A DNA stretch of 39,041 nucleotides from a virus (IMGVR_UViG_3300038379_000173:128001-167041), one strand, 5' to 3'; counted from the stretch's first letter, positions 6,126 to 39,041 are shown. Notes: generated by a model from the letters alone, not told the origin. Numbers and translations are program-made.

Positions 6126-6674
6126 TTACCCTTCAACCGGCGTGGAAGTGCCAACATAGCCTAAAAGTTCACCTGAGTTGTTTAATGCCGGCACAGCATA
6201 TACTATACTGCGCTGACGCTCAAAACGAACAAGCATACTAAATATACGTTTTTGTTCAAGCGCTTTTGTCCACTCAGTCAAAACTTTATTTCTCTCGTCA
6301 ATATGAATACCATTAATCCAACCAAAACCACGTGCTTGCTCTGGAAGTAATCCAGCCATCTCTAAATATTTTTTGTTGGCCCACAAACAATTTCCCACTC
6401 CATCGCTTTCCCATAATCCAACAGACATAACCATGGCCGCAGCACGCCTGGCATTCTGTTCTAAAATAAGCCCAGCCTCAATTCGATTAATTGCATCGCG
6501 AAGTGATGCTCCACCGTTTGGACGCAACTCACACATAATATTTTCTATAGAGTCAATTAGGAGAGCAACGCGCTTTATGAAATTCCAAAACGGACGCAAT
6601 ATCTTAACCCAAAACGACCAAATGGCCGCGGCAGCGGCAGCACAGAGGCTAATATAGGTGAGAACTTCAACCAT
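6126..6674 (-). CDS. Membrane-anchored PAS-domain protein
   Basis: Start at ATG 6674 after GGAGG. N-terminal hydrophobic helix, RPNGGASLRDAINRIE coiled segment, then PAS signature LWESDGVGNCLWANKKYLEMAG...GFGWINGIHIDER...GELLGYVGT. Confidence 0.75.
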   Translation of the reverse strand: MVEVLTYISLCAAAAAAIWSFWVKILRPFWNFIKRVALLIDSIENIMCELRPNGGASLRDAINRIEAGLILEQNARRAAAMVMSVGLWESDGVGNCLWANKKYLEMAGLLPEQARGFGWINGIHIDERNKVLTEWTKALEQKRIFSMLVRFERQRSIVYAVPALNNSGELLGYVGTSTPVEG

Positions 6675-9025: not shown

Positions 9026-9767
9026 CTAGTAAAAACTGCCTTTTCTTCATATCTTCCTTACATTTTTTTGTCGAATACGCCATTGTGCCGGCCATATCTC
9101 CAACCTCCTGGCGTACCTTCGCGTCCAAGAAAGAGCGCACCAGTGATGACACTGTAACCCTTTGTTCCTCGTCAGTTTTAAGGCGTTGTTCACGCGTAAG
9201 TCGCAATTTTTCGTGGTAGCCCACATATTGTTTCTCAGCCCGCTCCATATCTTGATATAATTGCTGATTAAGTGGCGGCTTAGCGTCTATCGGAGCTTGC
9301 TCATACTCATTCATTTGTTGACGAATAAGTTTGCGCAATCGGACAATGTCTATTTCCTTCATAATCATATTGTGAAGGATATCTTCTTCTTGTGCTTCAA
9401 GCGTATCGAGTGAATCTGAAGTATCGATGAATTTATTTTTGTAATACTCCAACTCAGTGTCTGAAAGCGTTTGTGTAAGCCAAATATATCTTGGGCTTTT
9501 CTCGAATTGTGTACGGTAGAAGGTTAATCGGTCCTCTTTTGAGAGGCGCGCTAGATTGTATGAAGATGGATTTGCAAAAATAGCCCCAATGTGACCCTGG
9601 CTTGCTGGCCGCCCAACTTGCCGAGTCAACCCGAGTTTTTTTCGTCTCCTTTGAACACCGTCAGCTAAGCGGTCGATATGTTGGGCTATTTCCTCGTCAC
9701 TTTTAGTTTCCCAATTCTCCCTTATATAATCATCTTCCCATTCTTCAAATGCGTTAATCTTTGTCAT
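9015..9767 (-). CDS. Probable terminase small subunit / HTH protein
   Basis: N-terminal HTH (SDEEIAQHIDRLADGVQRRRKKLGL), helical C-terminus, two genes upstream of terL. Confidence 0.55.
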   Translation of the reverse strand: MTKINAFEEWEDDYIRENWETKSDEEIAQHIDRLADGVQRRRKKLGLTRQVGRPASQGHIGAIFANPSSYNLARLSKEDRLTFYRTQFEKSPRYIWLTQTLSDTELEYYKNKFIDTSDSLDTLEAQEEDILHNMIMKEIDIVRLRKLIRQQMNEYEQAPIDAKPPLNQQLYQDMERAEKQYVGYHEKLRLTREQRLKTDEEQRVTVSSLVRSFLDAKVRQEVGDMAGTMAYSTKKCKEDMKKRQFLLGEV

Positions 9768-9769
9768 TT

Positions 9770-11170
9770 TTAGTACTCGATATTTACACCAGATACGTTA
9801 TTTACGCCTAAATCAGTCAACGCATTTAAACGACAGCCAACCAGAGCACAATTTGTAGATGTGTTAAGAAAAACTAGGTTGTTGAAATTACATCCATTAA
9901 ATAATATACCAGAGCCACCTACATATGTCGTTGTTACATCAGAAAAATCACATCCATTAAAAGATGCGCCTCCAACAGAAAGAATGCCGGGAATTGGGAT
10001 TGAGGAAAGGAACGAACAATTAGAAAATTCTGAATCACCAACCTCATAATTACCACCAAGACCCCATGTGGTAATTGAACAACCAACAAATTTATTACCG
10101 CCAAGTCCAGCACTCCCGTGTGTTGAACTCAATGTGCCAATAGCACAATTTGTAAAAATACTACCATTTACTATGTTTAGAGGAGACAACGATGCTGAGT
10201 CAACGATTGGTGAAGTGCTTGACCCAACATTACCAGCCACCGAGCCAAATAAACGAGTATTCGCTAACCTCATTGTACGCAATGTCATGAGAAGTCCATT
10301 GCCACCAATCGAAGCATCATTAAAAAGTCCATCAATAGATGTAGATGCTAAATAAGTTGTATCTGAAAAAAATGGTGCGTTGTTAGCAAACGTGCCGATT
10401 AAATACATATTAACATAGAAAATTCTAGTATCAGAAGAAGAATCGCCTTTGATGAATCCCTGACAACTAGTACCGCCGCCACTAAACGTTATATTTACGT
10501 AACGATTAATACGTGAATCAGCAGGACGCAAAACGCTTGTGTTCGCATTTGGTAGTAGTATACTAACATTATTAAATGTTTGTTGACAATCTGCAATATA
10601 TCCATTTGAAACAACTTGTAAACGTAAATTATTAATTGTTAAACTAGACCCCAAAGATGTCCCATTAAACATTGATAATGCTGACCCATACTGAGCCCTT
10701 ATAACTCCTGGACCTTCAATGTAAAGTGATGCTGGTTCTGTAAGTGAAAAACGATTGCCTTGTAAATTAACAACACTATTATTAGTAAACCTCATCGTAA
10801 AATTTGATGGTAAAATAGGATTACCACTCTCAAGAGTGTTAGCTATAACAAGAACATCTGTCTTCCCGGCGGTTACAGCCGCACCAACTGAGTTATAGTC
10901 TGCAGTTACACCAGAGCCCACCGTGACTGTGTAGGATGAAATGCTATTTGTAGATGTGACGCCAGAAGACACCATTTCGGTACCATTAAAAACCCACGTG
11001 CCGCCAACTACTGGGGTGCCCGAAAGTGGATAACCGCCTATACCACTAGCATCAGTAGTGATATTGGTTTGGTCTTTAACCCTCAAAAGGTCATCGTCAT
11101 CCACCGATGTGTTAGTGGCGGGCAATTTGCCCATAAGGCGCTTCCAATTTTCTCTACTTTGTCCACTCAT
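9770..11170 (-). CDS. Beta-helix (pectin-lyase-like) virion appendage protein
   Basis: 466 aa, S/N/G/T-rich with repeated FxNC/FxGC turns; VTVGSGVTADYNSVGAAV entry motif typical of beta-helix domains. Confidence 0.6.
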   Translation of the reverse strand: MSGQSRENWKRLMGKLPATNTSVDDDDLLRVKDQTNITTDASGIGGYPLSGTPVVGGTWVFNGTEMVSSGVTSTNSISSYTVTVGSGVTADYNSVGAAVTAGKTDVLVIANTLESGNPILPSNFTMRFTNNSVVNLQGNRFSLTEPASLYIEGPGVIRAQYGSALSMFNGTSLGSSLTINNLRLQVVSNGYIADCQQTFNNVSILLPNANTSVLRPADSRINRYVNITFSGGGTSCQGFIKGDSSSDTRIFYVNMYLIGTFANNAPFFSDTTYLASTSIDGLFNDASIGGNGLLMTLRTMRLANTRLFGSVAGNVGSSTSPIVDSASLSPLNIVNGSIFTNCAIGTLSSTHGSAGLGGNKFVGCSITTWGLGGNYEVGDSEFSNCSFLSSIPIPGILSVGGASFNGCDFSDVTTTYVGGSGILFNGCNFNNLVFLNTSTNCALVGCRLNALTDLGVNNVSGVNIEY

Positions 11171-15863: not shown

Positions 15864-16246
15864 AATATACCCCCCGGGAAAGACACAGAAGAGACCCTCG
15901 CTTCGCTTCGGGTTATTCGTACATACTCTACCATATGGCCCCATATGTATTTAGATGCCCGCGGGGATTTTTTGTCAACAGGTGACTTTTAATGGTCGCC
16001 GCCCTCTATGATTAGTAGGAGGACGAGGGGTATGATTAAGGTGGAGATGGTCTGGCGCTCCGACGTAAAATTAGTCCAAATGGGCGGCCACTTAGTCTCG
16101 CGGACTTTTATTCAACGCCACTGGAGATTTTTAAAGCAGTGAGGCGGGCATGGAAGCGGTGTTGGACACACTATTTAGCACCCTTTATGTTGCTATGGTT
16201 GTTGGTGTGTGTTACTTCGCCATTTTTGTTTTGCCGGAGGACAGAA

Positions 16247-16738
16247 ATGATTAGATATGTTAGCCAGCCAAACGATTGGACATGTGGACCAACGGCGGCA
16301 GTTAATGCCCTTAAGTGGGCCGGCAAAAAATGTAATGGGCGCGAAGAAATTAGGAAGATGATAGGCTACACAAGATGTTGCGCTGTCCATGGAACATTTG
16401 ATGAGGACTTATTAGAGACACTTAAGGTCGAGGGGAAGGGCCTTTTAACCTATAGTGTGGTCGAGCGACCCAGTTTGGACGCCATAGAGAGACATTTAGC
16501 GCGCGGCGGGGCTATAATTGGGTCCTTTAGCTTCCCGCACATAAAGCGGGACGGCGAGCATTATGCCCTTATTGTGGACATGATGGAGGAGGGCGACTAT
16601 TTCCTCTGTGTGAACTTGCAATATGGCGGGGACACTTGTGAGTGGGTCAGCCGTAGGGTGTTTAAGAAATTGTTTCTGAGGCGTAAGCCAACCGATACAT
16701 TTGTTTTTTTGTTTAAGGATAGATATGAGCGATACTAA
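16247..16738 (+). CDS. Papain-like cysteine peptidase (C39-like)
   Basis: QPNDWTCGPTA nucleophile motif, HYALIVD, CVN; ATG 16247 after GGAGG. Confidence 0.75.
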   Translation: MIRYVSQPNDWTCGPTAAVNALKWAGKKCNGREEIRKMIGYTRCCAVHGTFDEDLLETLKVEGKGLLTYSVVERPSLDAIERHLARGGAIIGSFSFPHIKRDGEHYALIVDMMEEGDYFLCVNLQYGGDTCEWVSRRVFKKLFLRRKPTDTFVFLFKDRYERY

Positions 16739-20267: not shown

Positions 20268-20585
20268 ATGGAAAAGGTTGAGTGGAAAAGGTTGAGGCCC
20301 TGGGAAGATGCCATCTTCTCGCGTGAGATGTGCGCGTGGTGGGACGCACAGGAGATGGCTACCCGTGTCGCCGGGAGCCAAATCCCGCCCTACATCATTC
20401 GCGCAATGGTGCGCCAGGGTGTCATTCGCTACATTCCCGCGCGCCGCTTCCAGGGTATCACCCGGACCGAGCGCGCTATCGGCAAGGTCCGCCGATTCTA
20501 CAAAATCGGATTCATGGCGGACCCGCAGATTATTCGCCTATTCAAGGTGAATCACGAGGTCTACCGCTACATGATGGCCATCTAG
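20268..20585 (+). CDS. Hypothetical protein
   Basis: AAGGAG RBS, MEKVEWKRLRPW... Confidence 0.65.
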   Translation: MEKVEWKRLRPWEDAIFSREMCAWWDAQEMATRVAGSQIPPYIIRAMVRQGVIRYIPARRFQGITRTERAIGKVRRFYKIGFMADPQIIRLFKVNHEVYRYMMAI

Positions 20586-20591
20586 GCTAAC

Positions 20592-20620
20592 ATGATTCCC
20601 TGAAAGGGAACGCGGTAGCG
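20592..20620 (+). repeat. Twin-hairpin element copy 1
   Basis: ATGA TTCCCT-GAA-AGGGAA CGC-GGTA-GCG, 6 nt after a stop codon. Confidence 0.9.
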
Positions 20621-20696
20621 TGCTAAGATACGTGACACCTTAGGTTAACCGCCTAGGTGTCGCATTACTCTCGTGGGGACGGGAGAGGAGTAAGGA

Positions 20697-20870
20697 ATGG
20701 AACCTAGGGGTTTGGACGATAAGGCAGACGAGACTATCCGCCGCGCTCACGCGGAGTCGGAGCGCTTGGGGGTCGAGTACGGCACGGGCTTGGCGCTTGT
20801 TCAGGCGCAGTACCCTGCGCCTTCGGGCGACACTGAGATTCTGCCGCTGGGCACCCTTTGGATTGAGTGA
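20697..20870 (+). CDS. Small hypothetical protein (57 aa)
   Basis: Hand translation MEPRGLDDKADETIRR...; GAGGAG RBS. Confidence 0.55.
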   Translation: MEPRGLDDKADETIRRAHAESERLGVEYGTGLALVQAQYPAPSGDTEILPLGTLWIE

Positions 20871-20914
20871 ATGAATCTTGTTGGTATTTGAACGTGTAAG
20901 TGTAACAAGTGATA

Positions 20915-20943
20915 ATGATTCCCGGAACGGGAACGCGGTAGCG
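20915..20943 (+). repeat. Twin-hairpin element copy 2
   Basis: ATGA TTCCCG-GAA-CGGGAA CGC-GGTA-GCG, then GGAGA and ATG 20955. Confidence 0.9.
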
Positions 20944-20954
20944 GGAGAACAAAC

Positions 20955-21422
20955 ATGGATGAGTATATGCGCAAGCTCCAACGTCTCGTCGCTCTTGGCG
21001 ACCTTGCCGCACGCCAAGCGCTCAAGGTTGCTGAGGAGCGGGCGTATGTTCCGTGCCAGGAATGCGGGGCATGCCCTACGTGTCTCGGCTGCGATTGCGG
21101 GGCCGAGCCATTCAATCGGTGGTGTCGGTGTCTGCGCCCACGCGCACCACTTACTGTCCGCCAACTTCGCGGACTGCCCTACGGGGTAATGATTTTCCAT
21201 GGGACCATGCGTCAAGGGTCCGCCGGCCGCGCATATCCCTTCAGGGTGCGCGTGACAGGGGTATGTAAGACGTGGAAGCGAGACCCGGAGCGTTGGCGCC
21301 TTCCTGTCAAACACGGACTAAGGGATAGCGCTTATCTCGGCTCGCCGGGCGAGCAAACGGCGGACGTTGAAAACGTTTGGTATTTGGCAGAACACGATGC
21401 CATGAAACATGGGAGTAGTTAG
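20955..21422 (+). CDS. Hypothetical protein with Cys cluster
   Basis: GGGAG RBS; CQECGACPTCLGCDC; C-terminal RVTGVCKTWKRDPERWRLPVKHGL. Confidence 0.7.
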   Translation: MDEYMRKLQRLVALGDLAARQALKVAEERAYVPCQECGACPTCLGCDCGAEPFNRWCRCLRPRAPLTVRQLRGLPYGVMIFHGTMRQGSAGRAYPFRVRVTGVCKTWKRDPERWRLPVKHGLRDSAYLGSPGEQTADVENVWYLAEHDAMKHGSS

Positions 21423-21504
21423 ATGACTCATTGCGGGCGTATCGCAAAGAACGTTAATGGTAAGCTTGTCTGCAAGGTTTGTGGGAAGGTTGTCAAGGGA
21501 TAAT

Positions 21505-21533
21505 ATGATTCACCGATAGGTGAACACGGAGTG
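21505..21533 (+). repeat. Twin-hairpin element copy 3
   Basis: ATGA TTCACC-GATA-GGTGAA CAC-GGA-GTG; directly after the TAA of a 26-aa ORF (21423-21503), ATG at 21543. Confidence 0.9.
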
Positions 21534-21609
21534 AGTGAAAAGATGTGGCATGCTGCGTTGGTCCAAGTCTACAGGCTCAAAGGCGGTAACGAAGAGGGCG
21601 GATGGTGGT

Positions 21610-21636
21610 ATGACTTCCCGTAGGGAACCCAGAGGG
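21610..21636 (+). repeat. Twin-hairpin element copy 4 (divergent)
   Basis: ATGAC TTCCC-GTA-GGGAA CCC-AGA-GGG, ATG at 21638. Confidence 0.7.
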
Positions 21637-21637
21637 C

Positions 21638-22141
21638 ATGGTGAAACAGTTCACTTTCAATCTGCGCAACAAATCCTCCCCCCAAGCTCACGAGCACATC
21701 ACCTTGCGCTTTCATAACGGAGCGGTAGAAGCCCTAAGTAGGGATGACATCAAGAGTGTCTGCCCTACTTGGGAACACGTTGGCGAGTACGTTGACGGCG
21801 CCGTGTTTTTCAGACCTTCTAAGGTCCCAGTGAAGCTGTTGGAAATTGCTGCCACTGGGCTCTTTATGCGCGGCTGGCGCGTCCGTGGCGCAATGTGTCG
21901 ACCCCCGGTGGAAGGTCGGGGTTACGATGTGGAGATTATCCCATCGGGCGCCATAACTAATCCCGATAGTCTCAAGGGTAATATCCGCCATCGCTCCGCT
22001 TCGCTTGGTAGCGTGGGAAAGGGTGAGCGCGGCGCCGCGACCTTCGGGGCGCGCTATAAGACGGACCCTCAGGCAATGCGAGATGCGATTCGCGAGCGTG
22101 AGCTTGCGCGTCTCCTAACCGATAAGTGGATGGAATCTTAA
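21638..22141 (+). CDS. Hypothetical protein
   Basis: 167 aa ORF bounded by element copies 4 and 5. Confidence 0.7.
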   Translation: MVKQFTFNLRNKSSPQAHEHITLRFHNGAVEALSRDDIKSVCPTWEHVGEYVDGAVFFRPSKVPVKLLEIAATGLFMRGWRVRGAMCRPPVEGRGYDVEIIPSGAITNPDSLKGNIRHRSASLGSVGKGERGAATFGARYKTDPQAMRDAIRERELARLLTDKWMES

Positions 22142-22147
22142 GCTACA

Positions 22148-22176
22148 ATGATTCCGCAAAGCGGAACGCGGTAGCG
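22148..22176 (+). repeat. Twin-hairpin element copy 5
   Basis: ATGA TTCCGC-AAA-GCGGAA CGC-GGTA-GCG, 6 nt after a stop codon, then GGAGA and ATG 22189. Confidence 0.9.
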
Positions 22177-22188
22177 GGAGAAAAGCAC

Positions 22189-22377
22189 ATGAAAACTATC
22201 CAGATGGTCGTTGCTATCACTCTCGAAATGGATGATGATGTTAACCCTGCATTCTGCGGGTTGGATTCTAAAACGTTCAGCTTGTATTCTAAGGATGGCG
22301 ATGGTATTTCGCCTCTTCTTTACAAATGGCAGGAATACGAAACTATTGATATTCTTGATTTGACTGACCCCAAATAA
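22189..22377 (+). CDS. Hypothetical protein
   Basis: GGGAG RBS, MKTIQMVVAITLEM... Confidence 0.65.
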   Translation: MKTIQMVVAITLEMDDDVNPAFCGLDSKTFSLYSKDGDGISPLLYKWQEYETIDILDLTDPK

Positions 22378-22391
22378 ACCGGAGGAACGCA

Positions 22392-22598
22392 ATGGAAAAT
22401 GTCATCCTAAGCTGCCGCGTCTGCGGACGACCGCCCCCGGTCGGATTCACCGTCACTTGTGGGGAGTCTTTCTGCCAGGAAGCGGACTACCTGCGGAGCC
22501 TAGAGCGGCGGTCGCGCCGCGGGTCCCGCGCCCGCGCTGAGGCATCCGCTCGTGCTGTCGCGGCCGAGGAATCAGCCCGAAAGAAGGCTGCACCATGA
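22392..22598 (+). CDS. Small Zn-finger-like protein
   Basis: GGAGG RBS; CRVC...C...C. Confidence 0.6.
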   Translation: MENVILSCRVCGRPPPVGFTVTCGESFCQEADYLRSLERRSRRGSRARAEASARAVAAEESARKKAAP

Positions 22599-23020
22599 AT
22601 ATTGGCGATTGGGTTGAATGGGTTCACAGATATGAAGGTGGGCACATCTATAAGGTAGGCAAGGTCATCGGTATGCATATCCTCGGGCCGCGCGATGATA
22701 TTGTTGTCATCGTAGCGGAGGATTGCCTTGTTGGTCGCGAATGGAAACTGAGGCAGGATGAGGATGACGTGAGGGTCATTCCGAATCCGTGCGCATATTG
22801 TGGGGGGCGCGTAATGAATTGGCGCGTCGAAAGACATTCCGGGCGCGGCTCAATGACACATGGATGGCGCGTCATATATGACGGTCCAGAGTTAAGCTCC
22901 GCCATTGATGTATATAACAAAACTCTCATTAGAATGCGCCAGGGTGGGGTTAGATTCATTGACCCCTCTGGAACCGTCAGACATGAAGCGGTAGCACCAC
23001 GTTGCCGTACGCGTTGGTGA
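22595..23020 (+). CDS. Hypothetical protein
   Basis: ATGA coupling to upstream gene. Confidence 0.6.
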   Translation: MNIGDWVEWVHRYEGGHIYKVGKVIGMHILGPRDDIVVIVAEDCLVGREWKLRQDEDDVRVIPNPCAYCGGRVMNWRVERHSGRGSMTHGWRVIYDGPELSSAIDVYNKTLIRMRQGGVRFIDPSGTVRHEAVAPRCRTRW

Positions 23021-23260
23021 TGTATTGACTCTAAGTGCAGCGGACCTCTAAAAATCCGCTGCATTATCTCCCCTAGAATATTCGGCCAGGTTCAATGGGT
23101 CGAAGGAACGACGAACGTTTTTTCTAGGGTTTCTAATAAAGCCGAGCCAAGTTGACGTTAACGGATAGGTAGACGGGGATTTGTAGTGTTCCGGCTTATC
23201 TAAACTGGCAAGTGCCAGGGGGTAATATGTCCATTTGATATCTTTTCACACTCATTTCGG

Positions 23261-24186
23261 TGGCGCGCAAATGACATTCGGATTTTCACGGTTACGTTTG
23301 TTTGTGCAACACTTGGGTAACAAAACGTCCTTTATGGGATTGTTTGCGTAACAACATGCTAAAGCTCGCCTTATACGTGCTCAGGCGGCCCGAGAGAAGA
23401 AAAGAGAATACGCGCGTTCGCATATGCGTAGGAAGAGAATAAAAGCACGCGAGGATAAAAAGAAAGCTGAGGCTAAGGCGCGCGCCGCTGAGTATAGGCG
23501 CCAACAAGAGATGTGGAGCGCCCCGCCTCCCGAGGATGAAGGTCCATCGACCCGACCTTGTAGGAAAGATGAGAGAGTTTGTTAGGCATTATGTTACGTA
23601 AACTTTTCGCAAACTTTTTAATGGCGCGCAAATGACACGTGTAACAACGCAGAAACGCAAATGCTCCTATTCTATTGCGTGCTACGGCACTTTTCACTCA
23701 TTTTCTTCTCTTTTCATCTCTCGTTCAGAAAACGAGGCGCAAATGGTCCGGATTTTTTGCGGTCCTTCGTGGGATTTTTCGTTTACTTTTCATGCGACGC
23801 AAATGGCCCTTATGAAGCGCAAAAGAACTTTTCAGGGATACGTTCCATATGAAATGAAACGGACCGGTATTGGGAGCGTATATGGCTAGCCATATAGAAC
23901 GCCTGGGGGCGCGCGTATAAGAAACAAGGTGGGCGAAATAACGCGGCGCGTGACGTTTGACGCGGAGCATTACGCTCTCGGAAGCTTTTCACGAGACGCA
24001 AAGGAGACTGAGTGAATTGTATCACTTTTGGGCCTTGAAAACAAAGGACTTAGGACGTGGAACAGGATTTAGTGGGCTATATTTCGCATTACGGGAAGGT
24101 AACACGGTAAAGCACTGTGGTATAAGCACTTAGATGTCCTTCCCTCCCAAGCACTTAGCTCAACCCGTTACCGCTAGGTAACTTAG
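23261..24186. repeat. Non-coding region with two families of short direct repeats (iteron-like)
   Basis: CGCAAATG at 23266, 23627, 23656, 23738, 23798; ACTTAG at 24048, 24128, 24153, 24181. Confidence 0.6.
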
Positions 24187-24319
24187 GCATCTTCGCCCGC
24201 GTGGTCTTACCCTTGCGATGTCTGTCATTGTTCACAGTGAGGTTGGTAAACGGGACAGTTCCAGCTACCCCTCGTATATGTCAAGCAATTACCATTTTCA
24301 ATGGATAAATTGCGTCATA

Positions 24320-24352
24320 ATAATTCGGCCCGTCAGGGTCGAACGCGGAGCG
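24320..24352 (+). repeat. Twin-hairpin element copy 6
   Basis: ATAA TTCGGCCC-GTCA-GGGTCGAA CGC-GGA-GCG, ATG at 24362. Confidence 0.85.
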
Positions 24353-24361
24353 AGTAAAAAG

Positions 24362-24679
24362 ATGCGGATTAAGATTGCCGACAAGCGCTTGCGTGCGCGT
24401 GCGGACGCGCCTCGCGAGCGCAGTATCGACGCGGACCTTTCCCCTGTGGCAAGGTTCGACACTCCGGCCGACATCCGCGCGATGAAGCTGCGGTCCTTCA
24501 GCCCGCACACCAAGAAGCCCCCGAAGCCCGCTAGGGAGCGCAAGCGTATCGTGATTCTCGCCCGTCCGACCCCGGTCCGCCGCCCCACCCTGGAGGAATT
24601 CGCATCCGCCCTCGCACTCCTCAATTCAAATGAAAACGCAGTGCGTGCGCATAACCTCAAGGTCGGTAAGGTCCGCTAG
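24362..24679 (+). CDS. Highly basic hypothetical protein
   Basis: R/K/P-rich 105 aa, MRIKIADKRLRARAD..., between element copies 6 and 7. Confidence 0.65.
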   Translation: MRIKIADKRLRARADAPRERSIDADLSPVARFDTPADIRAMKLRSFSPHTKKPPKPARERKRIVILARPTPVRRPTLEEFASALALLNSNENAVRAHNLKVGKVR

Positions 24680-24714
24680 TCAATTCATACCCGCCCCCAC
24701 ATTAAAATGTAAAA

Positions 24715-24741
24715 ATGATTCCCTCTGGGGAACGCGGAGCG
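24715..24741 (+). repeat. Twin-hairpin element copy 7
   Basis: ATGA TTCCC-TCTG-GGGAA CGC-GGA-GCG; precedes the ncRNA cluster rather than an ORF. Confidence 0.85.
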
Positions 24742-24759
24742 GGCTTCAAGTTTCAAATA

Positions 24760-24829
24760 AGTAATCCTATGGATAGGCGCCTGTAGCTAGCAATAGCTTG
24801 GGCTGGCGGGTTCAATTCCCGCATTACTG
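24760..24829 (+). ncRNA. tRNA-like element B (non-canonical)
   Basis: AGTAAT/ATTACT acceptor-like stem; T arm GCGGG-TTCAATT-CCCGC; CCTAT-GG-ATAGG D-like hairpin; AGCTA-GCAA-TAGCT capped arm. Confidence 0.65.
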
Positions 24830-24836
24830 TTAGTTA

Positions 24837-25645
24837 GACGCGCACGGAAATATAAGCGCCCAACGGCTCGCGCCGGAGGGATAGAGCTTGCTCGCAAGCT
24901 GCCGCTTATATTTTCCCAGGCGTCGAAGCGAGCGGGAATTCCCCTAAGGGGATGAAACGCGCCCGGCCTAACGGCTGGTATAAATGCTGGGCAGCGAAGG
25001 CCCAACGTAGCACGGGAAAAGATACCCGGCCGCTCTCTATCCATCCTGATTGAATCTGCAAGGCTAGCGACACTAAGCCTTTATGGCTTGTGAGCGCGAG
25101 GCAATACCGCCTTGCAATGTAGGTCAGGACGAATATCAGAGCCCACGGTATCCAACCCGGACGGGTTAAGTGTTCATGCCAAAACACTCATCCGCGACAA
25201 TCCTATTGATGTTTGTTGGATTGGTAAGGTCTACCTCCCAATTCAATAAATTGACATTGGATAGGTCACGGTTCCGAAAGGTCCACTCGCTAACGCGGGG
25301 CCCCGAGCAAGGGTAAGCGATAATGCTTACATTCTGCCGCGACAGGGTGCCAGGGCCGCTCCGATAGGCTAATGGGCTTGCTATGCAAGATTAAACCCGC
25401 GAAATGCCAAAAGGTGCGGTAGGGCTTAACTATCATTGAGAGATAGCGGACCACAGTAGGAATCGAAGATGCGGCAGCGACAATAAGTCCTGCATCTTGG
25501 ATGTAAAATAACTCATAGGGAAGCATTATCCAAATGCTGACCCGAAGGGGTGGGGGTTAACAATAAGCTCTCGCAGGAGTAGGGAGCGTCATGACACGCC
25601 GTGTCATGGCCACGCTCTTTTGTTAACTCCGAGACTCCACCTGTC
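24837..25645 (+). ncRNA. Candidate large (about 800 nt) highly structured ncRNA
   Basis: No credible ORF; continuous nested helices with G-T pairs on the plus strand (see findings); flanked by tRNA-like elements. Confidence 0.7.
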
Positions 25646-25699
25646 GCATAACAAACCTAAACGTGATATATAACGCAAGGTAATTATGCGCCAGAAAGT

Positions 25700-25760
25700 A
25701 GAATGTCCGGGCCGGCCGGCTTGCGTTCGCGCATGATAGGTTCAATTCCTATACATTCTA
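25700..25760 (+). ncRNA. tRNA-like element C (61-nt mini-tRNA)
   Basis: 7-bp AGAATGT/ACATTCT acceptor plus A; T arm ATAGG-TTCAATT-CCTAT; palindrome GCCGGCCGGC; TGCG-TTCG-CGCA arm. Confidence 0.7.
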
Positions 25761-25849
25761 TCGCTCCAACGCTCAGTGTCTACGCATACGTTGCAGCGAG
25801 CCGTGCCATGAGTTTGTAGTATAGGATTGGTGCGAAGAAATATATTAAA

Positions 25850-26102
25850 TGTTACTAGGGATTGGGATAGTGGTCGCCCCAATGCCGAATTAGACCAAAG
25901 GCGCCAAACCTTTCTTTGGTGTAGGGGTTGTGAGCTAATAACTCATAATCCTTATTCGGATTGCTACGCGTACGGGAAACGTCTCAGAAACTCTAGTGTT
26001 GTGCTAAGTATCACAGAATAGATAATCAGTCAACAATCCTTTATCAAATGCATGTGATAAATGGGTTGGTAGAGTCTGAGGGGCTCGGCATATACTACTA
26101 CC
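25850..26102 (+). ncRNA. Second structured non-coding block
   Basis: ATTGGG/CCCAAT, CCGAAT/ATTCGG, GCGCCAAA/TTTGGTGT, AGGGGTTGTGAG/CTCATAATCCTT, TTTATCA/TGATAAA. Confidence 0.5.
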
Positions 26103-26105
26103 AAA

Positions 26106-26134
26106 ATAATTCATCGAAGATGAACGCGGTAGCG
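26106..26134 (+). repeat. Twin-hairpin element copy 8
   Basis: ATAA TTCATC-GAA-GATGAA CGC-GGTA-GCG, ATG at 26146. Confidence 0.9.
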
Positions 26135-26145
26135 AGTGTAAAAAA

Positions 26146-26328
26146 ATGATTTGGTGTATTAAATCCTCCTGGTCCTCCGGTCCAATCTCCAGGGACAACC
26201 CCGACCTTTATCTATCCGCCGATAGTAAGGATGAAGCCGAGCGGATTGCTCGGGACATTTTGAGGTTGTCAGAGTGGGGTCAGTGGACATTGGAGGTTTC
26301 TGCGGTTCTCACTGAGGAGAAATATTAA
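26146..26328 (+). CDS. Hypothetical protein
   Basis: ORF track; follows element copy 8. Confidence 0.6.
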   Translation: MIWCIKSSWSSGPISRDNPDLYLSADSKDEAERIARDILRLSEWGQWTLEVSAVLTEEKY

Positions 26329-26329
26329 A

Positions 26330-26947
26330 GTGGACCAAATCTATAATCATCCTCTGCCGCGCCGTTGTATTCGGTGTAAGACTCCGACGGGCGCGCGGTA
26401 CATTTGCGCCAAATGCAATAGGCAGGCATACGCGCCGCTTAAGAAGCCCAAGTATTGCCACCGACCCGCTGCCGAAACTGGCAAGCGTCTGACGGCTGAG
26501 CGCATGCGTGACCCCTCTGGGGTTGCCAATGTTGCCGCCATTGATACCCTCCCCGTCCTGCATAAACTCCAGGCAGCGGCCATTCTTAGTAAGTTTGGCG
26601 AGAATACTGCATTGAGCAGTTACCTTATCACGCACTATGTTGCGAAGGGTCGGGCTAATGACATTGTCACTATGACCAGCGACGGCGCGCGCTTTTTCGA
26701 ATCTGAGATTGCGCGCATTGTCGATAGCGGAGTGGTAGGTAAGTGGAATGATGATATGCGCGCGACTAAGCCCCGCGCGCAGTCTTTCACTACCAAGGAC
26801 CGCAAGGTTATCCCGCCCGAATGGACCGCAAAGCGCTCCGAATTTCAGCAGAGGTATAACGCGGCCCGCGCCGCTGCCGTTGAAGGTGGGGCCAAGGAAA
26901 TGGCCCTGAGGGCTAAGGTTTTGGAAGCTGGGGGTAGGTTTATCTAG
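26330..26947 (+). CDS. Hypothetical protein with N-terminal CxxC-CxxC
   Basis: GAGGAG RBS, GTG start, CIRC...CAKC. Confidence 0.7.
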   Translation: MDQIYNHPLPRRCIRCKTPTGARYICAKCNRQAYAPLKKPKYCHRPAAETGKRLTAERMRDPSGVANVAAIDTLPVLHKLQAAAILSKFGENTALSSYLITHYVAKGRANDIVTMTSDGARFFESEIARIVDSGVVGKWNDDMRATKPRAQSFTTKDRKVIPPEWTAKRSEFQQRYNAARAAAVEGGAKEMALRAKVLEAGGRFI

Positions 26948-27312
26948 TGGGTAAGATTGGCAAGGTCGCCAGCGGGGATGTTATTTTCCCCGACCCCATT
27001 AATATGGGATGGCCAGCCCGCGACCATTGGCCGCGCTTGCTTTGGGCAGTTCATTTCTGGTTGGATAAAGCTGCCCACAATACCTATGGCGACAAAGATA
27101 TCATGGTGCCCAGTAACTTTACATTTGAAGCGAGGCGTGATAGTAGATATCAACGCTTAGAAAGCTTTGATGTTAAGCTCGTAAGGCTTAATGAGCGGTA
27201 CGCTTCGCATGAATCTTTCGATTTGCGCGAGGTTGATTATCGTATTACCCTCCTATGGGGCTATGGGGAGAACGTAGATGGGTTCGAGTGGTGCAGAATC
27301 AAAGCGGATTGA
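26947..27312 (+). CDS. Hypothetical protein
   Basis: TAGTG coupling to upstream gene. Confidence 0.6.
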   Translation: MGKIGKVASGDVIFPDPINMGWPARDHWPRLLWAVHFWLDKAAHNTYGDKDIMVPSNFTFEARRDSRYQRLESFDVKLVRLNERYASHESFDLREVDYRITLLWGYGENVDGFEWCRIKAD

Positions 27313-27550
27313 CATTCGCCCAGTCTTTGAAGATGGTGTAATCTTTGGGCTTACAATAGTAACACGCGACATTGGCTCAAGTGTTGAGATAGAAAATAGT
27401 GGAGCGCGCAATCATACATATAACTCAATTGTTTGGTTTGAAACTCTAGAGTTAGATAACCCCCTAAGTAAAGCCGAGCAGATGGGAATCGCTGACCAAT
27501 TGGAATGTATTGCAAAGCAAATCCGCGCAGGACTGGAGACTGGAGATTAA
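27278..27550 (+). CDS. Hypothetical protein
   Basis: GGGGAG RBS; ORF track. Confidence 0.55.
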   Translation: MGSSGAESKRIDIRPVFEDGVIFGLTIVTRDIGSSVEIENSGARNHTYNSIVWFETLELDNPLSKAEQMGIADQLECIAKQIRAGLETGD

Positions 27551-27824
27551 GATGTACAAGGTTTTTGCCGGCGATTGGTATTATCCATCCGGCGGATGGA
27601 ACGATTGGGTTGGTAGTTTCGCTACGCTCGATGCAGCGGATAAATTTACCATCTATTACAAGTGTCAATGCGTTTAAGAAACATTGAGCTAAATACTCAT
27701 TGTTTCTATCATGCCGGCGGAGGTAGTAGTTTTTAACTATCAGTGTCGGTTATCTCCAAGTGCTATCTTCGCCTGCTCCAAACGCTTCTTTTACACAATG
27801 ATTCGCCACTACACGGAGTGCTCG

Positions 27825-28019
27825 ATGAGCAGTGTTGCTAAGCCTTTCCCCGATTGGTTCTCTCGTCGCAACAAGGGTCCCGAGGCTTACCACGCGTGGC
27901 GTGAGCGGCGGGATAGGTTGGGCACCAATTGGTGCGACCCGCCAAAGCATACTCGGCCAGTGTTTTTTGAGGGCCCAGATGGGGAACCTACATTTGCGTG
28001 GTGGGTTAATCGTTCTTAA
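27825..28019 (+). CDS. Hypothetical protein
   Basis: GGAG RBS before MSSVAKPFPDWF. Confidence 0.5.
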   Translation: MSSVAKPFPDWFSRRNKGPEAYHAWRERRDRLGTNWCDPPKHTRPVFFEGPDGEPTFAWWVNRS

Positions 28020-28196
28020 CAAGGGTGTGCCACTACCCATTACTGTGGCTTTGGCGGTCTAGGACGCTGAGTAAGCCGCCGAAAAACACGGCGTACGGTA
28101 TATCTAAATGTCTATTGTTAGGTATACCTAAAATCAAATAGATTGCACGGGTCGGCCAAGCATTATCAGTGGTCGAAAATACAAGGGTAGATTGAA

Positions 28197-28628
28197 ATGA
28201 AAGTTGTCATCCTTAGTGGTATTCCCGGTAGCGGCAAAAGTACCTATGCTGCCTCTTTGGGAGCTACCATCTGTAGCGCAGATGACTATATGATTGATTG
28301 GCATGGTAAGTATCATTTTGATGCTGCCAACTTGGGACGATGCCACGCCCTTTGTATGCGACATTTCGTCAATCATTGTGTGACGTGGAAATCATCGCTT
28401 ATTGTTGTTGATAATACCAATCTTGCTGCCGCTGAAATCTCTCCATACGCTCTGGTCGCTACTGCCTTTGATTACTCCGTAGAGATTCATCGTATTTACT
28501 GTGACCCGTCTGTCGCGTTCGCACGCCAAACTCATGGAGTACCCAAGGCCGCCCACGATAGAATGGCCGCCGCGTTCGCTAAGCACGACGTGATGCCGTG
28601 GTGGAACGTTGTCGAGGTTGGTAAGTAG
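28197..28628 (+). CDS. P-loop kinase, AAA_33 / polynucleotide-kinase-like
   Basis: Walker A GIPGSGKST, ICSADDY, IVVDNTN, RQTHGVP. Confidence 0.85.
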   Translation: MKVVILSGIPGSGKSTYAASLGATICSADDYMIDWHGKYHFDAANLGRCHALCMRHFVNHCVTWKSSLIVVDNTNLAAAEISPYALVATAFDYSVEIHRIYCDPSVAFARQTHGVPKAAHDRMAAAFAKHDVMPWWNVVEVGK

Positions 28629-28681
28629 GTTCCACGACAAATAAACCGGCTTCTTCCTACCCGCCTACACATTAGGCAATA

Positions 28682-28710
28682 ATGATTCGCCATAGGCGAA
28701 CACGGTAGTG
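28682..28710 (+). repeat. Twin-hairpin element copy 9
   Basis: ATGA TTCGCC-ATA-GGCGAA CAC-GGTA-GTG, ATG at 28718. Confidence 0.9.
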
Positions 28711-29055
28711 TGTGAAAATGCTATACTTTACGCCCCTAGACCTCTATCTTTGGACTCTCGGCATGGTAGCCATTGGGTTTGTTGTAGGGGCGCAAGTATC
28801 TAGATGGATAAGGAAGGGGTAAAAGTGCTACTCTGCCCACATTGTTTATTGTCGGATGAGGAAAAGTGCGAGGCGTGCGGTAAGAATGCCGGCGCAGCCC
28901 TACATACTTGTCCATTCCTAGTGGAAATTAAAGGCGACAGTAGTCTTTGTAACTGCTGTGCCGACTGTAAGAGCGAATGTTAGATGGATATCTAGAATTG
29001 GCAAGTGCTCTAAACGGAAATCGCTATGTGGTAGACGGTTGATATCACTTGAAAC

Positions 29056-29142
29056 GGCTCCGTAGCCCAATGGCCGAGGCGGGGCGCTCAAAACGCCTGA
29101 CGAACTTAAATGTTCATGTGGGTTCGAATCCCACCGGAGTCA
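29056..29142 (+). tRNA. tRNA-Leu (anticodon CAA)
   Basis: GGCTCCG/CGGAGTC acceptor, GGGCG-CTCAAAA-CGCCT anticodon arm, long variable arm, GTGGG-TTCGAAT-CCCAC T arm; CCA not encoded. Confidence 0.92.
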
Positions 29143-29161
29143 TGTCGGTTCGAAGTTGGAA

Positions 29162-29234
29162 GTATCAGTAATTTAACTAGGAAAATCTCGCAGTCAGTAA
29201 CTGCGAAATGTCGGTGCAAGTCCGGCCTGATACA
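29162..29234 (+). tRNA. Atypical tRNA / tRNA-like element D, anticodon undetermined
   Basis: Perfect GTATCAG/CTGATAC acceptor, ATTT/AAAT D stem, T arm GTCGG-TGCAAGT-CCGGC, but extended anticodon arm TCGCAG-TCAGTAA-CTGCGA. Confidence 0.7.
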
Positions 29235-29329
29235 ATGGCTTCCTATATGGTGTAGGTGGCCAATGGCCCCGCTGGGGCGCAGTTTCTTTTGTCAAATAGC
29301 TATCGACCACGCGATAGCGGGAGACCAAA

Positions 29330-29947
29330 ATGTTGAATCTGAATGACTACATCGATGCTATTGCCCTGGCCGAGCCTTCGCGCCAGGAAACCCTCTTGCA
29401 GGCTTTTGCAGCCGTTGAAGTTGGCGGCAAGCCTATCGGACTGGAGGAGCTAAAGAAGCTTTTTAATGAGCGGGCCGAGAACGCTAAGAAGCGCGCGGCC
29501 AATGCCGCTAAGCGTGCCGAACGCGAGAGTCTCAATGCTCGGCTCACTGAGCTTCAGAAGGAGGGCGCGGCCCTTTCTTTCGATTTCTCCGCTCTGACCG
29601 ATTTCGTCGGAAAGGTGGCGGCGGCAAAGGGAGAGGTTGGGCTGACTCTCAAGGACGGCAAGGTTACCATGGAGGTTTTCGGGGTGGCTAGCACTGCTAG
29701 CGCCACTAATGGCGGTGGTAGGCCCAAGAAGGATGCACCCCAGCCGTTTGTTGATTCGAATGGCGAGCGTGTCACTGGGCCGCTTACGGATTGGGCTCGG
29801 GCTAACATTAGCCAAGCAGAGCTTGATGCCGCTCCGAAGGTCGGGGGTAAGCTTGCGTCTGGTGCTAAGCTCGTCGAGTATCTGAAGAAGCTTAACTATA
29901 TCGTCGATTCGCCTGTGCCCACGCAACCGCAGGGTGCGACGGAGTAG
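29330..29947 (+). CDS. Hypothetical protein (coiled coil plus GGGRPKK AT-hook-like motif)
   Basis: 205 aa, GGGAG RBS preceded by half element CGC-GATA-GCG (29310-29319). Confidence 0.75.
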   Translation: MLNLNDYIDAIALAEPSRQETLLQAFAAVEVGGKPIGLEELKKLFNERAENAKKRAANAAKRAERESLNARLTELQKEGAALSFDFSALTDFVGKVAAAKGEVGLTLKDGKVTMEVFGVASTASATNGGGRPKKDAPQPFVDSNGERVTGPLTDWARANISQAELDAAPKVGGKLASGAKLVEYLKKLNYIVDSPVPTQPQGATE

Positions 29948-30064
29948 TTGTTTTCCCGCGGCCAATCCTTACTAGTTTGGCTGTAGGTAGCTGCCCATTG
30001 ATAACTAGGGCGGCAAATAGTACGCACGGGAGGGCACAGCGTACCAGGTGTCCTATTTAACACT

Positions 30065-30090
30065 CACTCCGTGTTCCCTAAGGGAATCAT
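30065..30090 (-). repeat. Twin-hairpin element copy 10 (inverted)
   Basis: Minus strand ATGA TTCCC-TTA-GGGAA CAC-GGA-GTG followed by AGTG as in copy 3. Confidence 0.88.
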
Positions 30091-30130
30091 TTGCACTTTT
30101 TCTAATGACGCTTGCAAGTTAAGGAGTTAA

Positions 30131-30385
30131 TTGTCCATGACACTAAGTCTTCTTAATAAATTCCTCACCCTACATAGATTTAGGGCGGTAGAGTGGGACG
30201 GACGAGAACTTATTGCCTACAGAAAAAACTCATCTGGTCTCGAACCTATGTGCTCGGCTGAATTTCCAAGCCACTCAAAAGTACGCAAGGAGATGGAACA
30301 TCTTGAGCGTCGAGTCAAACGACACAAACAATTCTACTATGAAGTAGAACCCATGAGCAATATTCGTTTGGTGGATGGCAGGTAA
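30131..30385 (+). CDS. Hypothetical protein
   Basis: AAGGAG RBS; ORF track. Confidence 0.6.
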   Translation: MSMTLSLLNKFLTLHRFRAVEWDGRELIAYRKNSSGLEPMCSAEFPSHSKVRKEMEHLERRVKRHKQFYYEVEPMSNIRLVDGR

Positions 30386-33659: not shown

Positions 33660-33842
33660 ATGAAAGTAAAGGATGAGCCATTGGCCGCCCTTTGGTTCAA
33701 ACTCTGGGATAATACATACGGCCGCCCAACTAACATCACAAATATTGAAGTTGTCCTAGAGTGGGCAGGCAAAACATCTAACGCCCGTGCACTTGGGCGA
33801 TGGTATCGTGAGAAGGGATTTGAAAATGAAACTGTGGCTTGA
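33660..33842 (+). CDS. Hypothetical protein
   Basis: Fills the gap between neighbours. Confidence 0.5.
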   Translation: MKVKDEPLAALWFKLWDNTYGRPTNITNIEVVLEWAGKTSNARALGRWYREKGFENETVA

Positions 33843-35968: not shown

Positions 35969-36215
35969 GTGTTGCGTAAATTGCGGACAGCGCATTGTAT
36001 TGACACATACATTTACTGATATGAATGGGAAAACTTACCTAACCTATAGACACTATAGAAAAGGTGATAATACATATTATTGCGAGCCGGCCGATGTTTT
36101 CCCAGAAAAACCGCCGCCGGCCTGTCATGTTTGTAGGACAACCAGCACCATACATGGGCACTTTTGTTCTGCGGCTGGTATACCTATGTATCATGCGGAG
36201 TTAGCAAATGACTAA
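35952..36215 (+). CDS. Cys/His-rich hypothetical protein
   Basis: CVNC, CHVC, HGHFC. Confidence 0.6.
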   Translation: MTKKLKCCVNCGQRIVLTHTFTDMNGKTYLTYRHYRKGDNTYYCEPADVFPEKPPPACHVCRTTSTIHGHFCSAAGIPMYHAELAND

Positions 36216-38152: not shown

Positions 38153-38240
38153 AAAAAATCCTTTCTACTCTAGAATACACCTCAAAGTGACATCTCCTCT
38201 GACAAGACTGTATTATGTCACTCTTTGAAACCTAACAAAC

Positions 38241-38602: not shown

Positions 38603-38710
38603 ATGTCAACATTCGAAGTTCTCATCCATCCCATTGTTCTCAGCCCCCACTCCAATGCTGACAAACTATCCATTGTTTACTTGGGCGGCTTTCAATGTCT
38701 TGCTATGTGA
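38603..38710 (+). pseudogene. Truncated remnant resembling the N-terminus of DRB0094-family RNA ligases
   Basis: MSTFEVLIHPIVLSPHSNADKLSIVYLGGFQCLAM* recalls the (P)HPNADxL...GxQC OB-type start; stops after 35 aa. Confidence 0.5.
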
Positions 38711-38844: not shown

Positions 38845-39041
38845 ATGACCGATATCGAAAAACTCATTGCGGCCCTTCCGGCCAATCGTTTGTATGTCGA
38901 TACTTGCGGCGCCCAAGGCGCTCGAATTGAGATGGTGGGCGCAAACCTCTGGGGCACAAATCTCAGGGGCGCAGACCTCAGGGGCGTATACCTCAGTGGC
39001 GCAAACCTCTGGGGCGCAAACCTCGAGGGCGCAAACCTCAG
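38845..39041 (+). CDS. Pentapeptide-repeat protein paralog, partial (runs off window)
   Basis: AAGGA RBS; [36 protein letters not shown]..., near-identical to 34950 onward. Confidence 0.9.
   Translation, partial: MTDIEKLIAALPANRLYVDTCGAQGARIEMVGANLWGTNLRGADLRGVYLSGANLWGANLEGANL

Follow-up and report, generated by a model that had tools for sequence, protein, structure and literature searches.

A covarying twin-hairpin element repeated at early gene starts of a phage and tentatively read as a promoter-plus-leader cassette

Phage early regions are mostly unreadable, as they consist of orphan genes whose control signals are unknown. Here we describe a repeated element in a 39,041-nucleotide stretch of DNA from an uncultured phage (IMGVR_UViG_3300038379_000173:128001-167041; hereafter the window), which forms the final 39 kb of a linear contig of 167,041 bp that is about 91% complete. 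The element spans about 45 nt and is composed of an A/T-rich box, named box A, followed by two small hairpins, stem 1 and stem 2. As a signal it is structured and orientation-specific, and it is associated with gene starts. It is real and unclassified in Rfam, and in this unstudied phage lineage it forms a statistically solid mark where no fewer than 11 orphan genes and several small RNAs begin. We tentatively read it as a portable promoter-plus-leader gene-start cassette acting in sense orientation, a reading that we rank slightly above, but about level with, that of a purely post-transcriptional RNA leader.

Copies, structure and setting of the element

Thirteen copies were aligned with MAFFT, the columns were checked by hand, and a covariance model (R1) was built from the alignment. 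R1 scored ten copies in the window at 29-51 bits, and all ten copies listed by the original prediction were thus recovered in their places. A fixed-gap form of the motif matched the window five times, where 0.01 matches were expected (100 shuffles). Scanning further with R1, as had been proposed, added a decayed copy in the window and five copies elsewhere in the genome (genome positions 2030-2070, 2496-2544, 6247-6287, 16230-16275 and 36040-36085), with 15 good copies and one partial copy in the whole 167-kb genome; at least four more are carried by a relative. Fifteen of these 16 copies are on the plus strand, and all lie within the block of plus-strand genes, which extends from about 144 kb through the contig ends to about 46 kb; elsewhere the genes are on the minus strand. 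The copies of the window are listed below with their R1 scores, together with a small-RNA candidate that adjoins one of them (ORF, open reading frame).

20584-20625, plus strand: copy 1, 48.7 bits; begins 3 nt past a stop codon; some 70 nt of structured, non-coding sequence separate it from an ATG at 20697
20907-20948, plus strand: copy 2, 51.4 bits, closest to the consensus; ATG 11 nt past stem 2 (155-aa ORF); TTGAAC 17 nt upstream of the box A hexamer
21497-21538, plus strand: copy 3, 45.7 bits; stem 1 loop GATA, stem 2 CAC-GGA-GTG; ATG 9 nt downstream
21602-21641, plus strand: copy 4, deviant, 29.4 bits; additional base in box A, stem 2 CCC-AGA-GGG; ATG 1 nt downstream (167-aa ORF); a 26-aa upstream ORF terminates within the stem 1 loop
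22140-22181, plus strand: copy 5, 48.9 bits; 2-6 nt past the stop codon of the 167-aa ORF; ATG 12 nt downstream
24312-24357, plus strand: copy 6, 35.9 bits; stem 1 of 8 pairs including one G.T wobble; ATG 9 nt downstream (arginine-rich 105-aa ORF)
24707-24746, plus strand: copy 7, 46.3 bits; a tRNA-like RNA begins about 22 nt downstream, and no ORF follows
26098-26139, plus strand: copy 8, 44.3 bits; box A is ATAATTC; ATG 11 nt downstream (60-aa ORF, heading a tight operon)
27790-27825, plus strand: decayed copy, 12.7 bits; 3′ arm of stem 1 lost, with box A, 5′ arm and stem 2 retained; ATG 4 nt downstream
28674-28715, plus strand: copy 9, 51.0 bits; stem 2 CAC-GGTA-GTG; ATG 7 nt downstream (34-aa membrane peptide)
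30060-30098, minus strand: copy 10, 44.7 bits, the sole minus-strand copy of the window, between two plus-strand genes; TTGCAA 17 nt upstream of the box A hexamer; orthologue at L084:11594-11630
30023-30052, minus strand: small-RNA candidate block of 30 nt, immediately downstream of copy 10, with a CCCUCCC stretch

The 5′ part of the element reads (G)Y-n-AnAAT-RA, TTC, one to five variable pairs, a loop of 3-4 nt, and GAA; the 3′ part reads C-RY-GG(T)A-RY-G and leads into an A-rich spacer. At the base of stem 1 the TT/AA pairs are invariant and the C-G pair is nearly so, followed by one to five positions that are free to vary as long as they pair. Stem 1 mostly has 5-6 pairs, of which the inner ones covary, and it is closed by a triloop in 8 of 13 copies. 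Larger inserts, still paired and with internal loops, occur in three copies. The inner part of stem 1 had been described as always made of three pairs. Its pairing was confirmed, but the number of pairs ranges from one to five, or is larger where internal loops are present. Stem 2 abuts stem 1 without a linker and is made of C-R-Y, a loop of GGTA or GGA, and R-Y-G. The two boxes of the element are 7-20 nt apart.

The covariation claimed for both stems was evident in two tests. In the MAFFT alignment 97.4% of the cells pair and five of the nine pairs are altered on both sides, with a covariation score that was reached by none of 500 shuffles; shifting the 3′ partners reduced the pairing to 24-63%. 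The second test used 19 copies, four of them from the relative, and 500 shuffles. Here 97.5% of the cells pair, seven of the nine pairs are altered on both sides, and all five measures exceeded those of every shuffle (for stem 1, 96% of the cells and four of six pairs, respectively). Shifting the partners lowered the pairing to 24-66%. The only pairs that are not Watson-Crick are G.T on the element's own strand, where A.C is never found, and the loops on this strand are purine-rich GNA or GNNA. The occurrence of G.T without A.C, along with these G...A-rich loops, indicates that the structure is carried by the sense strand. Both RNA and DNA energy models predict the twin hairpin. Only tRNAs passed the Rfam gathering scores, and the element had no match; at E<=1 over 20400-30300 nothing was reported on the copies except for a 23.5-bit chance match to tRNA-Sec, covering copy 7 and the adjoining tRNA-like RNA. 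As first proposed, the element is a structured signal, and it corresponds to no described Rfam family.

The copies are placed at gene starts with a fixed spacing. In 10 of the 16 copies the end of stem 2 is 7-12 nt ahead of an ATG. Within the window seven copies end 1-12 nt ahead of an ATG and three begin 0-6 nt past a stop codon, in agreement with the original observation, and several occupy the entire 38-50 nt from one stop to the next start. The spacer after stem 2 is A-rich, with a weak GAG or GUG, and the anti-Shine-Dalgarno pairing energy of element-linked genes is no different from that of other genes. Where genes inside an operon overlap by their stop and start codons, no copy is present. 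There are also non-coding targets, namely the tRNA-like RNA behind copy 7 (24707), the structured non-coding sequence behind copy 1 (20584) and the small-RNA-like block at 30023-30052, so that targets of both kinds are found, on either strand. In one copy, g2508, the start codon lies between the two stems and a GGAGAGG Shine-Dalgarno sequence is included in the element. The flanks of the copies have no homology in common. No intrinsic terminators were found between the copies, and in the sense orientation the hairpins are not followed by a T-run. Read as its complement, in the opposite orientation, box A forms an interrupted T-run, and one copy was flagged in the terminator search.

Promoter, leader or operator

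In the reading that we tentatively favor, box A (nAnAAT, usually with a G two bases before it) would serve the host RNA polymerase as a promoter core of the -10 type, and every copy would start its own transcript. The twin hairpin and the A-rich spacer would form a compact leader, which would set the start codon 7-12 nt past stem 2 or lead into a small or tRNA-like RNA. A start of the sigma-70 type, 7-9 nt past box A, would fall inside the 5′ arm or the loop of stem 1, and stem 1 might then work at the DNA level, as a hairpin of the sense strand that is extruded at this site in dependence on supercoiling, as in phage N4, but used by the host enzyme. Alternatively, initiation a few bases further upstream would place both hairpins at the 5′ end of the RNA. 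Stem 2 has few pairs and hence can only be a single-strand structure, most likely of RNA. Reuse of one cassette may also supply homology for the shuffling of early genes.

We infer a promoter role for box A from several observations; what stem 1 does is likewise inferred. Position 2 of the box A hexamer is A in 13 copies out of 16 and position 6 is T in all but one, and a G is found at -14 in nine of 12 copies. The three minus-strand copies (window 30098, L084/L086:9134 and L086:14952) all lie between plus-strand genes, and minus-strand RNA at these places therefore needs a promoter of its own. All three have a hexamer beginning with TTG 16-17 nt upstream of box A, for which the background is 6.8% per site, and the sequence flanking the two orthologous ones is otherwise not conserved. 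That copies precede ORFs, a tRNA-like RNA and a small-RNA-like block speaks against a role in translation only. The 105-aa gene has an orthologue in the relative, and there a different, promoter-like motif, GGTGTATTAG, takes the place of the element. The start codon and GGAGAGG of g2508 would be free in an RNA starting within stem 1, and the lack of terminators between copies resembles what is seen in phage early regions with many promoters.

Other points weigh against this reading. The sigma-70 spacing puts the start inside stem 1, and the covariation of stem 1 then needs an unusual role at the DNA level. A -35-like hexamer is present in only two of 17 plus-strand copies, and the observation on the minus-strand copies was made post hoc on three sites, two of which are orthologous. 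The relative's orthologous copy has C in place of the near-invariant last T of the hexamer, and the other promoter-like motifs of the phage differ, being TGTATTAT and TTGACA-N18-CTAAAT (TTGACA-N17 to TCTAAA). A more specific proposal, which we consider unlikely, is that initiation by the host polymerase requires a small DNA hairpin, extruded from the sense strand where transcription starts. Such a promoter would follow the structure-read, supercoil-sensing principle of N4 early promoters but without a virion polymerase, and it would have been multiplied, as a portable cassette with its own leader, from about four to 16 gene starts in one lineage. If the promoter-plus-leader cassette is real, it defines the early regulon and would illustrate the spread of one regulatory unit and its shuffling of genes. 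With stem 1 acting as DNA, the element would represent the first case of a host polymerase using a hairpin-dependent promoter.

We regard the purely post-transcriptional reading as possible though somewhat more doubtful. Long early transcripts would read through the copies and the sense RNA would fold into the two abutting hairpins, with the A/U-rich box A (RAUUC) remaining single-stranded and serving either as a cleavage site for an enzyme of the RNase E type or as a protein-binding site. The downstream message would thereby gain a 5′ end capped by hairpins and, at a set distance from it, an A-rich ribosome site that is open. Covariation of both stems with G.U wobbles and no A.C on the sense strand, helices that abut, and the spacing of stem 2 from the ATG, which is 10 nt in both plus-strand copies of the relative, are all consistent with such a leader, as is the confinement of copies to the 38-50-nt gaps between stop and start and their absence from overlapping operon-internal genes. 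A variable stem with conserved flanks suits a need for structure alone, and RAUUC meets the RNase E rule RN|WUU at four of five positions, including the U at +2 (PMC5222698). However, the three minus-strand copies have no evident minus-strand transcription upstream of them, and yet their stems are kept by compensatory changes; a ribosome-site function would also be useless ahead of tRNA-like and small-RNA-like genes. A simple 5′ stabilizer leaves the conserved loop GG(T)A and the GAAC unexplained, and none of 14 tetraloops is GNRA or UNCG. No homologue of RegA or RegB was found, and the ten early ORFs that were scanned contain no Pfam domain, RNA-binding domains included. Should the element act as RNA, it would be a novel and compact leader that could serve as a minimal part for insulation.

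The conserved loop and box could instead be recognized by a phage RNA-binding regulator that coordinates the early regulon, either as a nut-like site for an N-like antiterminator or as the site of a translational repressor. In the boxA-boxB layout a conserved single-stranded box is combined with a hairpin that has a conserved loop, as in the element, and the 105-aa ORF behind copy 6 opens with an arginine-rich stretch and is about the size of lambda N. Yet sixteen sites far exceed the needs of antitermination, no terminators were detected in the region, and the arginine-rich protein has no family match. Moreover, the conserved loop is that of the 3-bp stem while the loop of the long stem is free, the reverse of boxB. 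We therefore hold such an operator to be quite improbable.

Further candidates were tried and rejected. A T7-like GGGAGA start behind stem 2 is ruled out by the ATG of g2508 between the stems. With GAAC as the -35 of an extracytoplasmic function (ECF)-type promoter, the -10 would land on or past the start codon, and in a sigma-54 promoter (GG-N10-GC) the GG would be within the variable arm, with the additional loop T shifting the spacing. A duplex promoter or dimeric operator over both boxes does not fit their 7-20 nt spacing, and a duplex binder leaves the covariation of the symmetric inner positions unexplained. A leader peptide beginning at an ATG in box A was dismissed, as three copies have ATA there and no ribosome site is found upstream. 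For a terminator on the opposite strand the wobbles turn into A.C, and stem 2 and the ATG spacing have no explanation; an intrinsic terminator on the sense strand lacks the U-run after the hairpins. Stem 2 is not a Shine-Dalgarno sequence, with T interrupting GGAG in most copies and the anti-Shine-Dalgarno energy being no different, and larger duplicated segments are excluded by the lack of homology in the flanks.

Relatives and comparison with known systems

The phage record database held no DNA-level resemblance to the contig and no close relative of it. Motif scans covered IMG/VR and metagenome contigs. They returned 55 and five single matches, respectively, all attributed to chance and located inside coding or unrelated sequence. 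The element is also missing from four phages of IMG/VR whose terminases are about 60% identical, including a complete one of 177 kb. A closer relative, in which the late genes are syntenic, was found via its ribonucleotide reductase (P0002, 70% identity). Sequencing runs that contain the phage or this relative are SRR12687280 and SRR31738697-700. It has at least four copies, two on the plus strand, each 10 nt ahead of a start codon, and two on the minus strand in gaps between plus-strand genes. One of the latter is the positional orthologue of copy 10, in the same orientation, and the 30-nt block behind the two orthologous copies differs by one substitution and one inserted base, the remaining gap being diverged. 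The relative's copies show compensatory changes at pairs that are constant in the window phage (TTG/CAA in stem 1, GAC/GTC in stem 2) and contribute one further G.T. The 30-nt block itself was found neither in IMG/VR nor in the four phages with about 60% terminase identity. It belongs to a small-RNA candidate at 29950-30052 (minus strand), in which the CCCUCCC is anti-Shine-Dalgarno-like and the stem letters of the next hairpin differ in the relative but still pair.

Only one copy is orthologous between the two phages, most others being at non-orthologous gene starts. The relative's orthologues of three element-linked genes lack the element, and the gene order differs, although at 70% reductase identity the relative is too distant for mapping breakpoints between the gene orders. 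Orthologues without the element and its replacement by GGTGTATTAG imply that the element family has expanded and moved. In the window, 38603-38710 (plus strand) encodes a 35-codon remnant of an RNA ligase, which matches only the N-terminus (33 aa, 73%) of a 324-aa PF09414 ligase; the latter is intact in the relative and has an element copy ahead of it.

These data bear on the possibility, raised originally, of a cassette recombination site, and more broadly on a reading of the element as primarily a DNA site for recombination or mobility, such as a PeSL-, attC- or REP-type cassette boundary or a miniature mobile element. A single 45-nt unit stands ahead of unrelated genes with non-homologous flanks, 16 copies are found here versus at least four in the relative, mostly at non-orthologous starts and with a different gene order, and a decayed copy exists (27790). 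The cassette idea thus gains indirect support, but no dedicated enzyme was found: searches of the genome gave no tyrosine recombinase (PF00589, controls positive) and no Y1 HUH transposase (PF01797). The copies show no target-site duplications and no terminal repeats, and the exact start-codon spacing, together with a spacer for the ribosome site within the unit, suggests that expression is what has been selected for. We judge a primary mobility function even less probable than an operator, and shuffling is more plausibly a by-product of regulatory DNA being repeated. Whereas attC lies at the 3′ end of a cassette, the copies of the element are locked to the 5′ ends of genes.

An early promoter for a phage enzyme, of the kind used by the N4 virion RNA polymerase, had also been suggested, and this suggestion did not hold. 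GCGGAGC, contained in stem 2 of three copies, is what we take to be the GC-rich heptamer of N4 promoter P2. The dimensions of stem 1 match as well (mostly 5-6 pairs, a 3-nt GNA loop, closure by C:G; N4 features in PMC4496689). N4 promoters are template-strand hairpins read by a giant virion polymerase and are present in three copies (PMC4496689). The element resembles them in its small hairpin with conserved plus free-but-paired positions, its 3-nt loop and its location upstream of early genes, but it has 16 copies and its stable purine-loop hairpin is on the sense, non-template strand. In the N4 orientation the transcripts would be antisense to every gene. No T7-like RNA polymerase was found in the genome by PF00940, with which control genomes were likewise negative, and the contig is about 91% complete. 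The 2220-aa ORF has the composition of a tape measure and lacks polymerase motifs; PDB, PHROGs and Pfam gave no match. In addition, the start codon of g2508 upstream of stem 2 excludes a start site behind the hairpins. We consider this reading largely refuted.

Structured intercistronic signals and hairpin-protected ends are known from RNase III and RNase E sites and from 5′ stem-loop stabilizers, such as the T7 R sites and the T4 gene 32 leader. The element is similar in being a structured intercistronic signal that punctuates polycistronic early messages, but its stems are far too short for RNase III, and its conserved mini-hairpin and minus-strand copies have no counterpart there. In the promoter-early stem-loop (PeSL) cassettes of T4-type phages, the stem-loop is a terminator and precedes a complete sigma-70 promoter, which has both a -35 and a -10 (PMC2839356, PMC4122927). 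Like PeSLs, the element is a short composite of a promoter-like part and a stem-loop whose letters vary, it is repeated ahead of small early genes in a plastic region, and its positions differ between related phages. It differs from them in having two hairpins, downstream of the -10-like box and without a U-run, in lacking a -35 in most copies (a -10-like hexamer is present in nearly all, a -35-like TTG in 5 of 20), and in being set at a constant distance from start codons. In Cluster K mycobacteriophages, many start codons have SAS/ESAS motifs just upstream of them (PMC3203893), and the function of these motifs is unexplained (PMC12699233); SAS has the 13-nt consensus GGGATAGGAGCCC and lies 3-8 nt ahead of the start codon (PMC12699233). 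The element is a different sequence and does not match GGGATAGGAGCCC. Both systems have an inverted-repeat extension with a variable spacer and a near-uniform orientation with a single reverse copy. SAS, however, includes the Shine-Dalgarno sequence and ESAS has 17-bp arms of conserved sequence, whereas the arms of the element are short, sequence-variable and covarying and are followed by a second mini-hairpin. PeSL and SAS/ESAS are the closest known kinds, and the element has their logic but not their sequence, part order or defining features.

Other features of the phage genome

The contig encodes a terminase, a portal protein, a class II ribonucleotide reductase and the 2220-aa tape measure, as well as a split DnaE with an intein, its own sigma-70-family factor and an RNA-repair gene set. 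For the early proteins no homologues were detected. DnaE is encoded in two ORFs 2 kb apart (L005 2845-9313, minus strand) with the intein in the C-terminal half, and its N-terminal half is similar to split forms of 633 aa that are mainly known in Cyanobacteriota. This similarity may provide a lead to the host, as may the pentapeptide-repeat genes and the complete avoidance of GATC described below. The RNA-repair set (L001 6284-11261 and window 28197-28628) is located among many tRNA-like elements and comprises a T4 Rnl1-like ligase, an RlaP nucleotidyltransferase, a metallophosphoesterase, which has an element copy ahead of it, and an AAA_33 kinase. At 29162-29234 (plus strand) Rfam reported a second tRNA (37.7 bits), which adjoins a tRNA-Leu and was not reported by ARAGORN.

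The motif TGTATTAT recurs in intergenic regions on both strands throughout the genome (in the window at 33716 and 36074 on the minus strand and at 38209 on the plus strand) and takes the form GGTGTATTAT ahead of several late genes; from its sequence it looks like the phage's middle or late -10-type promoter. The canonical TTGACA-N18-CTAAAT (TTGACA-N17 to TCTAAA) is located upstream of the reductase gene. Another repeat, CGCAAATG(A), is found in at least five copies at 23266-23805 (plus strand) within a 1.2-kb non-coding stretch. Its core, AAATGA, resembles box A of the twin-hairpin element, and it is clustered also in the 177-kb relative G002 (20 copies) and, in the closer relative, at about 2980-3700 of L081. 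The repeat might represent an iteron or a promoter array.

GATC is absent from the 167 kb, where 640 sites were expected, as are AGGCCT and GAGCTC; GACGTC, CCCGGG, ACCGGT, CAGCTG, CTGCAG and GTCGAC are nearly absent, and GCGCGC and GCCGGC are 4-5-fold over-represented. The missing sites amount to strong restriction-site avoidance, and the phage encodes Mom-like and MT-A70 genes. GGCCGCC and GGCGGCC occur 79 and 48 times, respectively, against about five expected for each, many of them in the context TTGGCCGCC. Paralogues of a pentapeptide-repeat gene with a 15-nt period are found at 38845-39041 of the window and at genome positions 9489-9790, 158895 and 163044-163430. The contig ends inside such a gene, and the assembly therefore probably broke at the repeat.

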